Positions 1,335 to 2,727 of a DNA stretch of 64,000 nucleotides are shown in pieces. The notes below the pieces were generated by a model. That model was not told where the DNA came from, did no database searches, and saw only the letters and a list, made by a program, of their open reading frames with translations. Both the position numbers and the translations under genes were made by a program. The DNA is from an uncultured bacterium. Its GTDB lineage: Bacteria > Bacillota_I > Bacilli_A > RFN20 > CAG-826. Each line of letters starts with the position of its first letter. Position 1 is the stretch's first letter. The stretch is taken from NCBI GenBank assembly GCA_949299395.1, contig CASGAB010000002.1, forward strand, positions 23,734 through 87,733, in the 5' to 3' direction.

Positions 1335-2141
1335 ATGGAAGAAATAGTTGAATACGTAAAAAATAAAAAGGAAAAGATTAAAGAAATCGTTTCAAAACTA
1401 CCTTTTTCTAAGCCTTTAAAAATTGTTATCGTTCAAGTTAATGATGATCCAGCTTCAAATGCTTATGTTAATGGAAAAATTAAGGATTTAACTGAACTTG
1501 GTATTTCTTATCAACATTTAAAATTAAGAAATGATATTGATGAAAAATCTCTTTTAGATGTAGTAAATAGATTAAATAATGATGATACAGTCACAGGTTT
1601 TATTGTTCAACTTCCTTTACCTAAAGGAATTAATGAAGAAAAAATTAAAAATGCAATTACACCTAAAAAAGACATTGATGGATTTAATCCTCTTTCTCCA
1701 TATTTAAGTGCTACACCAAAAGGAATTTTAGAATATTTAAAAGATAATAAATTTAATTTTGATGGTAAAAATGCTGTTATTTTGGGAAGAAGTGATATTG
1801 TTGGAAAACCAATGGCAAAAGCCCTACTTTCGATGAATATGAATGTAGTTACTTTACATTCTCATACTTCTTATGAAGATAGAAAATTTTATTTTGAACA
1901 TGCCGATTTAATAGTTGTAGCAATTGGAAAACCTTATTTTATTAAAAATAACGATTATAAATTTAAAGATAATGCAGTAGTTATTGATGTAGGAATTTCA
2001 CGAGTTGATGGAAAATTACTCGGAGATTGTGAGCCTTCACTTAGTGTTGCTTTCCAATCACCTGTACCAAAAGGAGTAGGACTTTTAACTCGTTTAGCTT
2101 TAATTTTAAATTTGTTGGAGGCTTATAATTATGGATTTTAA
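1335..2141 (+). CDS. folD: Bifunctional methylenetetrahydrofolate dehydrogenase/cyclohydrolase
   Basis: Motifs YVNGK, VQLPLP, KDIDG, GRSDIVGKP, VIDVGI, PVPKGVGLLT. Confidence 0.95.
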   Translation: MEEIVEYVKNKKEKIKEIVSKLPFSKPLKIVIVQVNDDPASNAYVNGKIKDLTELGISYQHLKLRNDIDEKSLLDVVNRLNNDDTVTGFIVQLPLPKGINEEKIKNAITPKKDIDGFNPLSPYLSATPKGILEYLKDNKFNFDGKNAVILGRSDIVGKPMAKALLSMNMNVVTLHSHTSYEDRKFYFEHADLIVVAIGKPYFIKNNDYKFKDNAVVIDVGISRVDGKLLGDCEPSLSVAFQSPVPKGVGLLTRLALILNLLEAYNYGF

Positions 2142-2727
2142 AATTGGAAAGACTGAAGTATTTGGATTAGATAGCGCTATTAAAGCTAGTGGTAATCCAA
2201 TGAGAACTGAATTTAATCGTGAACCTGTCGATGAAAAAGATTTAAAAAGAGCTGTTGCTTTAGGTGCAACAAAAGGCGGAGAAGGTCACGATAATTTTTT
2301 AAAAGGTATTGTTGTTGAATTTGATATTACTGCTCCACTTTATTGGTGGAAACAGGCTCAAAGATATCATTTCTTTGAATATGTTTCTTCTCAATCCACA
2401 ATGCATTGTTTATTAAAATTCGATATTTCTTCTCAATGCGTTAATGAAACAAATCCGGAAATTTTAAAGATTGTTGAAAGAATAAAGGATGAATATAATG
2501 CAATTCCTGAAGAAAATAAGGATGAAAAATATAAAAAGTGGAGAGAATTAGTTGCTTCAACACCTTGTGGATTCTGTTTAGGTGCAACTATGGTAACTAA
2601 CTATCAACAATTAAAAACTATGTATAATCAAAGAAAATTACATAAACTTGTTGAATGGCACACCTTCTGTGATTGGTGCGATACCTTGCCACATTTTAAT
2701 GAATTTACTGGTTGCAATAGAGGATAG
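2131..2727 (+). CDS. Divergent ThyX (flavin-dependent thymidylate synthase)-fold protein
   Basis: GHDNFLKGIVVEFDITAPLYWWKQAQRYH...SSQSTMH and TNYQQLKTMYNQRKLHKLVEW align by eye with ThyX H..PFEH.vftF...[9 protein letters not shown].RHR...S.RY and N.RsL.nF..LR...haQ.E. Overlaps the folD stop. Confidence 0.6.
   Translation: MDFKIGKTEVFGLDSAIKASGNPMRTEFNREPVDEKDLKRAVALGATKGGEGHDNFLKGIVVEFDITAPLYWWKQAQRYHFFEYVSSQSTMHCLLKFDISSQCVNETNPEILKIVERIKDEYNAIPEENKDEKYKKWRELVASTPCGFCLGATMVTNYQQLKTMYNQRKLHKLVEWHTFCDWCDTLPHFNEFTGCNRG

Follow-up and report, generated by a model that had tools for sequence, protein, structure and literature searches.

A ThyX-fold protein family paired with FolD in uncultured gut Bacilli and carried by phages is a candidate thymidylate synthase

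The window analyzed here is a 64-kb stretch of the genome of an uncultured bacterium (contig CASGAB010000002.1), in which an open reading frame (ORF) with an ATG start at 2131-2727 (+) encodes a 198-aa protein overlapping the end of folD. Fold prediction indicates that this protein is almost certainly a homologue of the flavin-dependent thymidylate synthase ThyX. It falls in a large sister family of ThyX that has the Thy1 fold and no name, here called family X (its gene, X). The family very probably acts in the synthesis of pyrimidine deoxynucleotides, and we put at roughly 0.6 the probability that it is a thymidylate synthase equivalent, converting deoxyuridine monophosphate (dUMP) to thymidine monophosphate (dTMP). 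The proposal that it does the job of ThyX draws on the predicted fold, profile homology, the pairing with folD, the neighboring genes for dCMP deaminase, dUTPase, and ribonucleotide reductase (RNR), and the replacement of thyX in situ in a Clostridium perfringens phage.

DNA cannot be replicated without thymidylate synthesis, and to our knowledge only two enzyme families, ThyA and ThyX, make thymidylate. The presence of either is used in annotation and metabolic reconstruction to judge whether a genome can make dTMP. Reviews of thymidylate synthases name only ThyA, ThyX, and the ThyX paralogue PolB (PMC5954106, PMC7226160, PMC6514825), and our literature search found no description of family X.

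Predicted fold and family membership

The window protein was modeled by AlphaFold2 from a 49-sequence alignment, as a monomer without ligands, with a predicted local distance difference test (pLDDT) score of 93.3 and a predicted template modeling (pTM) score of 0.86. When the model was searched against the PDB with Foldseek, the top 50 matches were all ThyX chains from Thermotoga maritima and Helicobacter pylori (1o26, 3ah5, 3n3y), with E values of 3.7e-7 to 7e-6, a probability of 1.00, TM scores of 0.54-0.72, and 203-218 aligned columns. Against BFVD, two uncharacterized family members scored best and all remaining matches were ThyX-type thymidylate synthases. The order of secondary-structure elements in the model is that of ThyX.

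Profile comparison supports the same relationship. For this and for all conservation counts we used 150 diverse family representatives, 31-53% identical to the window protein. Their alignment matched a diversified ThyX profile, to which five phage ThyX sequences had been added and in which the Thermotoga set had been thinned, with an hhalign probability of 88.5% (P 2.7e-6) over 142 columns, spanning window residues 15-180 and T. maritima ThyX residues 22-187. An earlier comparison with a narrow profile of Thermotoga-type ThyX only had given 31% probability over residues 36-79, and in global mode against the narrow profile the C-terminal alignment was unreliable. Pfam Thy1 (PF02511) was by far the commonest weak match in the family, hit by 23 of the 150 members (best E 1.1e-4), one of which scored 22.1 bits against a gathering threshold of 24.8 bits. 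Judged from these comparisons, the sequence-level link of the family to ThyX is weak but real. A ThyX fold had been proposed for this ORF in an earlier note, made from the DNA letters by alignment to a T. maritima ThyX sequence. Both the Foldseek searches and hhalign upheld the fold, and the ThyX sequence used there proved correct, its full-length version matching PDB 1kq4 over 220/220 residues (496 bits).

The sole family match of the 198-aa protein was PHROG 6721 ("unknown function"; E 1.6e-54, 185.9 bits), aligned end to end (residues 3-194 against profile positions 8-216 of 218), and no Pfam model (searched to E 1) or NCBIfam model matched. Although the window protein matches this phage family over its full length, the folD-coupled clade of Bacilli described below is not part of a phage. 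We found about 2,960 relatives of the window protein among 90%-identity clusters, and 3,434 representatives at 50% identity (E <= 1e-3) in a library of 1.84 billion proteins. When one genome per species was scanned, relatives turned up in at least 575 bacterial species; many phages carry them too. Named members are all labeled "hypothetical protein", as are ten distant members looked up by cluster. This agrees with the mention in the earlier note of hypothetical proteins in phages and Firmicutes, the family being unnamed in phages and Bacillota alike.

Two departures from the usual architecture were observed among the representatives. Ten of the 150 carry an in-frame insertion of 200-250 aa holding an HNH_3 domain, joined in 6 of these by AP2, and located in the variable loop that links helices 1 and 2, after window residue ~26-30 (P0241, P0254, P0328). 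It resembles a homing-endonuclease domain, or else an intron ORF that the gene caller read through; no Hint/intein signature was seen in the HNH_3-bearing insertions. The protein P0250 (456 aa) is a tandem domain duplication in which copy 1 is without SSQSxMH (it reads VDRISAIDQ) and copy 2 retains it, suggesting a pseudo-dimeric variant.

Conserved residues compared with ThyX

Residue equivalences to ThyX were drawn from the profile alignment and from spacing. Window residues H53, R78, Y79, P145, N157, R168, H171, and E175 were paired by hhalign with H53, R78, H79, P151, N163, R174, H178, and E182 of T. maritima ThyX, respectively, so that counterparts of ThyX His53, Arg78, Asn163, Arg174, His178, and Glu182 are retained in the profile alignment. 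These pairs include the flanking H and N/R/H/E elements (H53, N157, R168, H171, and E175) that the earlier note had read as kept. H53, aligned with His53 of T. maritima (GHETPFEH), lies in the segment G50-x-G52-H53-D54...K58-G59 (2278-2307, +). The remaining pairs fall at the RHR position of ThyX and in a C-terminal block comprising P145, G147, N157, Y158, Q160, K162, Q167, R168, H171, K172, E175, and W176 (2563-2658, +).

In ThyX, the RHR motif hydrogen-bonds the phosphates and ribityl of flavin adenine dinucleotide (FAD), and its first arginine also contacts the isoalloxazine ring and dUMP. The nucleotide is further held by Arg199 of the Mycobacterium tuberculosis enzyme (Arg174 in H. pylori), a loop serine, and a loop arginine; Arg107 of M. 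tuberculosis, or Arg90 of T. maritima, contacts dUMP, and a tyrosine forms a lid over C5/N5 (PMC6514825). In the window protein, residues 68-92 of the ORF read APLYWWKQAQRYHFFEYVSSQSTMH, and R78-Y79-H80 (2362-2370, +) takes the place of RHR in the hhalign alignment. This change from RHR to RYH had been noticed by eye, and the family bears it out: R78 is present in 149 and Y79 in all 150 representatives. Position 80 is the least conserved of the triplet, being His in 117/150 and otherwise including Asn, Ser, or Arg (Arg in 5/150).

The substrate loop is changed as well. Where ThyX has E-L-S-G-R-Y, the window protein has the family signature S86-S87-Q88-S89-T90-M91-H92 (2386-2406, +), SSQSTMH thus standing in the region of the SGRY loop. 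The earlier reading of this loop as SxRY turned into STMH with one extra residue is plausible by eye. STMH is present, but residues 80-92 (HFFEYVSSQSTMH) could not be aligned to ThyX with confidence. The same limit applies to S89, invariant in the family, which by eye is the counterpart of the loop serine S88 of T. maritima.

About 25 positions are at least 90% conserved among the representatives. Y79, S89, P145, Q167, and R168 are found in 150/150, R78, G147, and H171 in 149/150, G52, H53, G59, and W176 in 147/150, S87 and H92 in 146/150, M91 in 145/150, and N157 in 143/150; S86 and Q160 follow with 140/150, Y158 with 139/150, and K162 with 136/150. This constellation looks like an active site. 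Compared with ThyX (EC 2.1.1.148; T. maritima TM0449, PDB 1o26), family X is alike in predicted fold, profile homology, and size (~200 aa). It differs in having RYH with an invariant Tyr79 instead of RHR, a VSSQSxMH loop that by eye is one residue longer than ELSGRY and is without an Arg90 equivalent, no 10-residue segment carrying Arg147, and invariant residues of its own at Gln167, Lys162, Tyr158, and Trp176. On its sequence, the window protein is not a canonical ThyX and is best described as a member of a distinct family with its own conserved residues.

Genomic partners in bacteria and phages

The gene upstream of X in the window is folD (1335-2141, +), whose 268-aa product matches PF00763 THF_DHG_CYH (E 4.9e-30) and PF02882 THF_DHG_CYH_C (E 5.8e-38), both over the Pfam cut-offs. 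FolD is the bifunctional 5,10-methylene-tetrahydrofolate dehydrogenase/methenyl-tetrahydrofolate cyclohydrolase. The NCBIfam FolD equivalog models also match (E 1.5e-61), yet at ~208 bits against trusted cut-offs of 333-559, and by these scores the protein belongs to a divergent FolD lineage. ORF coordinates and the raw sequence verified that X begins 11 nt within folD (overlap 2131-2141, +), as the earlier note had stated. A Shine-Dalgarno sequence, GGAGG, lies inside the folD 3′ end at 2117-2121 (+), 9 nt before the ATG, and is also present in a relative (L023). The overlap together with this GGAGG suggests that folD and X are translationally coupled. Between 1000 and 6500, promoter-like sites were no commoner than in shuffled sequence, and no credible terminator was found between folD, X, and the next gene, which is compatible with a single operon. 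No riboswitch or other RNA family was detected in the window by an Rfam scan, and no tRNA by a tRNA search.

The pairing is conserved. Bacterial neighborhoods were compared in the best 80 of the at least 575 species, with the relatives seen as 12-kb flanks. These 80 are metagenome-assembled genomes (MAGs) of uncultured gut Bacilli, labeled as 'Mollicutes', Erysipelotrichaceae, Coprobacillus, or Candidatus Onthovivens. A FolD homologue is encoded directly upstream of X on the same strand in 78/80 species, one of the exceptions being a truncated contig. The overlap is exactly 11 nt in 45 of the 78; a scripted count, in which L023 was wrongly included, gave an overlap of 1-26 nt in 61/78, and all but two of the others lie within 19 nt. 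The spacing of -594 that the script returned for L023 had suggested a FolD-X fusion, but this was an artefact: on translation, a TAA stop precedes the ATG by three bases.

FolD identity among these species drops to 49-83%, and the other flanking genes change by lineage (SecG, UvrB, YolD/DinB, 2-hydroxyacid dehydrogenase, DegV, M29 peptidase, and Band 7 protein). Given this divergence of FolD and the turnover of the other neighbors, the conserved unit is the folD-X pair rather than the whole region. The changing neighbors were considered as parts of the system and rejected, since they are housekeeping genes and vary between lineages. The earlier note had called for adjacency to be checked across relatives, and had held that its proposal would fall without a structural match to ThyX, or if a canonical thyA/thyX in the genome, failed complementation, and unconserved adjacency came together; ThyX was matched, and the adjacency is kept. 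In 8 Erysipelotrichaceae/Coprobacillus-like species, a ComEB-type dCMP deaminase gene lies directly upstream of folD, giving the order dCMP deaminase-folD-X. By tblastn, no ThyA or ThyX was found in the 64-kb window or in the flanks of the relatives, the E. coli ThyA query being, here and in the searches below, an unverified sequence. Seven folD-X contigs (L016, L019, L027, L043, L044, L055, and L077) were deposited under the bin names Bacteroidaceae, Phocaeicola dorei, Lachnospiraceae, Gemmiger formicilis, Slackia, or Parabacteroides, which probably reflects mis-binning of contigs or mislabeling of MAGs and not horizontal transfer.

A comparison between X and thyX comes from C. perfringens phages. 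The module of phage XP41-N3 that contains X is 94-96% nucleotide-identical to those of phiCP39-O, phiCP26F, phiCP34O, phiCP13O, phiCP9O, CPD1, PMQ04, and others, all of which annotate an (alternative) thymidylate synthase at that slot. XP41-N3 and these relatives share the gene order Gam-Erf-nuclease-55-aa ORF-[gene]-SSB, where the bracketed gene is X (L004 4998-5558) in XP41-N3. Identity to phiCP39-O extends across the 55-aa ORF and into the gene for ~13 nt, giving both proteins the start MKVS, and resumes at the stop codon. It is lost over exactly the coding sequence (L004 5011-5554 in XP41-N3 against L171 3906-4535 in phiCP39-O). The phiCP39-O allele is a canonical ThyX (RHR...QSQRY; LTRHRTFKFNVQSQRY), matching T. 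maritima ThyX at E 1e-20 and a ThyX hidden Markov model (HMM) at 2e-27, whereas the XP41-N3 allele (ELERYRFIDFVSSQSTMH) belongs to family X and shares 42% identity with the window protein. BLASTP detected no similarity between the two proteins. No other ThyA or ThyX was found in the complete XP41-N3 genome, even with the ThyX of its relatives as query (ThyA query unverified). The XP41-N3 allele, which replaces thyX, reads RYR at the position of RYH.

In phages more broadly, X keeps company with genes for deoxynucleotide synthesis and replication. The 19 GenBank phages that carry it come from C. difficile, C. perfringens, Fusobacterium, or Desulfovibrio hosts or from gut metagenomes, and X always lies within a replication or nucleotide-metabolism module. 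We also examined 80 IMG/VR viral loci, which represent 36 lineages at 80% identity. NrdD/NrdG, class II RNR, or dUTPase is encoded within 10 kb of X in 29/80 of these loci (15/36 lineages), and neither ThyA (unverified query) nor ThyX was found within 6-10 kb of X in any of 160 bacterial and viral loci. A second phage set consisted of 80 loci centered on NrdD, of which 13 contain X, 9 contain canonical ThyX, and none contains both. Five of the NrdD-centered loci have X and dUTPase separated by 11-835 nt, and L234 has X between dCMP deaminase and dUTPase. Phage phiCD211 (complete, 131.7 kb) encodes X, dUTPase, guanylate kinase, and NrdD/NrdG, and annotation, tblastn, and HMM searches found no ThyA (same unverified query) or ThyX in its genome. 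ThyX occupies a similar phage niche beside dUTPase, RNR, and dCMP deaminase, and X fills the exact thyX slot of a C. perfringens phage; unlike ThyX, family X is also chromosomally coupled to folD.

One viral locus, L103 (IMG/VR contig 3300018411_000035, 9116-13616), has the order HNH-DnaB-FolD-X-primase-DUF1599-(membrane protein)-dCMP deaminase-Pol III alpha. Its X and FolD are 45% and 40% identical to the window copies, and by these identities the locus is a second, independent folD-X pairing. Phage-encoded folD seems unusual, and folD was found in 1/80 viral loci. DUF1599 (Pfam 'nucleotide modification associated domain 1') occurs near X in 3/80 viral loci (L103, L093, and L130).

The surroundings of the pair in the window are AT-rich (GC 0.25-0.34) and densely packed with genes, mostly on the + strand. 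An M29 aminopeptidase gene (2733-3971) just downstream of X has an in-frame TAA at codon 13 (2769-2771), where seven relatives have GAA (Glu) and read KKY[IV]ELIVKCGAN or a close variant. The ORF listing, which starts from the next in-frame ATG (2856), gives 371 of ~411 codons. The TAA could be a nonsense mutation, the mark of an incipient pseudogene, or a sequencing error. Upstream of folD and divergently transcribed is a gene for a sigma factor of the extracytoplasmic function (ECF) type at 615-1151 (-), and a homologue of WbuX-like N-acetyl-sugar amidotransferase followed by an EFR1-family ferredoxin is encoded at 6392-8466.

Candidate function and its alternatives

In the pathway that we propose, FolD, co-translated with X, would supply 5,10-methylene-tetrahydrofolate (CH2-THF), dCMP deaminase or dUTPase would supply dUMP, and the family X enzyme would turn dUMP and CH2-THF into dTMP. 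The ThyX fold and the kept counterparts of His53, Arg78, Arg174, and His178 suggest flavin-mediated methylene transfer, in which reduced flavin would carry the methylene group, by analogy with ThyX. The assembly would be tetrameric, and Tyr79, Ser86/87/89, Met91, His92, Lys162, and Gln167 may take over nucleotide binding and activation. The proposed net reaction and role are those of ThyA (PF00303, EC 2.1.1.45), to which family X has no sequence or fold relationship and no Pfam match. ThyA oxidizes the folate to dihydrofolate and pairs with dihydrofolate reductase, whereas family X pairs with folD.

A bolder version of this proposal is that family X is a third mechanistic type of thymidylate synthase. 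It would bind and activate dUMP without RHR, Arg90, and Arg147, by means of Tyr79, Ser86/87/89, His92, Lys162, and Gln167, possibly with altered use of flavin or reductant. A large clade of uncultured gut Bacilli (Onthovivens-like, Erysipelotrichaceae-like, and 'Mollicutes' MAGs), together with many of the phages of these Bacilli, would then have no other thymidylate synthase. We advance this version tentatively, at less than even odds.

Several observations weigh against assigning the family as a thymidylate synthase. At the sequence level, no curated Pfam or NCBIfam model, Thy1 included, recognizes the window protein, and phmmer of the protein against PDB sequences retrieved no ThyX. A profile of 49 family sequences finds ThyX only at E 0.7-0.9 (residues 33-84), the 150-sequence profile has no ThyX match, and pairwise BLASTP to a phage ThyX is non-significant (E 0.12). 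The ThyX signature RHRxxSxxxxSxR(Y) is present neither in the window protein nor in the family. The dUMP-phosphate arginine R80 of T. maritima is replaced by H80, there is no conserved arginine in residues 86-92 that could stand for Arg90, and T. maritima residues 138-147, the 10-residue segment with Arg147, face a gap when the profiles are aligned. Where ThyX has its tyrosine lid, the family most likely has a histidine. From the genomic side, a single in-situ displacement was found, and the zero overlap of X and ThyX in the NrdD-centered set is not significant (hypergeometric P 0.18).

The changed substrate loop and the lost arginines also fit altered substrate or chemistry. On that account family X would be a folate-dependent enzyme that modifies C5 of pyrimidine nucleotides with a product other than dTMP: a dUMP hydroxymethylase making 5-hydroxymethyl-dUMP, a dCMP methylase or hydroxymethylase, or a PolB-like UMP methylase, supplying modified bases for phage DNA or for a nucleoside metabolite. 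Such an enzyme would share the fold and the folate link, and DUF1599 near X in three viral loci is in its favor. ThyX paralogues of altered specificity do exist. PolB of the Streptomyces polyoxin pathway methylates UMP and dUMP and has likewise diverged in substrate handling with the flavin/folate chemistry kept (PMC5954106; PMC7226160). Compared by description only, PolB differs in belonging to COG1351 with ThyX (PMC7226160) and in its antibiotic gene cluster, whereas family X is far more divergent, is missed by ThyX models, and occurs in housekeeping or phage replication contexts. A C5 modifier of this kind nevertheless appears unlikely, although it survives best among the alternatives. On the chromosome, X is paired with folD in at least 78 bacterial species, in which a modified DNA base is not expected, and XP41-N3 carries X in place of plain thyX in a 94-96% identical module of otherwise equal gene content. 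Because that content is unchanged, the extra kinase, transferase, or dNTPase genes required for hypermodification are missing. The residue matching Arg174, which binds uracil O4 in ThyX, is invariant (150/150), which favors uracil over cytosine as the substrate.

The same pattern of residues can be read from the flavin side, since three dUMP-phosphate arginines are lost and candidate flavin-side residues (H53, R78, N157, and H171) are retained. Together with the tight translational coupling to folD, this would suit a flavin/folate enzyme that has lost its action on nucleotides, such as a methylene-tetrahydrofolate reductase-like or NAD(P)H-oxidizing partner of FolD, or a folate-binding accessory or regulatory subunit. 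We regard this as slightly less likely than a C5 modifier. In phages, X lies in modules for deoxynucleotide synthesis and replication (dUTPase, dCMP deaminase, NrdD/NrdG, class II RNR, and polymerases), folD accompanies X in a single viral locus of the 80, and such an enzyme would hardly account for the in-situ replacement of thyX.

If family X were a ThyX relic without catalytic activity that only binds nucleotide or flavin (as a sensor, a sequestering protein, or an anti-defense or defense factor), this would account for the missing canonical catalytic motif and for the frequency of the family in phages, which are rich in decoy and inhibitor proteins. This reading is improbable in view of the ~25 positions conserved at 90% or more, which include polar residues at ThyX active-site positions (R78, Y79, S89, H92, Q167, R168, and H171) in the pattern of an active site, and of the housekeeping-style operon with folD in 78/80 species examined.

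Least credible is a uracil methylase acting on a polymer, either tRNA/rRNA, making 5-methyluridine (m5U) like the folate/FAD enzyme TrmFO, or deoxyuridine in DNA: lost 5′-phosphate-binding arginines could mean a substrate without a free 5′-phosphate, and m5U enzymes vary among reduced-genome Mollicutes-like Bacilli (PMC7226160), but the protein has only 198 aa and no nucleic-acid-binding domain, its phage neighbors are enzymes of the dNTP pool, and the enzyme replaced in XP41-N3 acts on a free nucleotide. Most of these alternatives are disfavored by the housekeeping setting on the chromosome and by the clean exchange at the thyX locus, and a thymidylate synthase equivalent is the reading that we prefer.

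Family X is invisible to annotation by Pfam, NCBIfam, and PHROG, yet it is placed where a thymidylate synthase is expected. If it is active as proposed, the dTMP pathway has been wrongly scored in many genomes of gut Bacilli and phages; if the third-type version is true, the Bacilli and phage genomes concerned have so far looked devoid of de novo dTMP synthesis. Models of ThyX catalysis rely on the RHR motif and on dUMP-polarizing arginines. A relative that performed the role of ThyX in the absence of this motif and these arginines would put such models to the test and would also matter for the design of ThyX-directed antimicrobials, and the exchange of thyX and X alleles in C. perfringens phages offers a natural, ready-made experimental system. 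The conserved coupling to folD suggests that in these Bacilli the pair may form a self-contained module leading from one-carbon units to dTMP.

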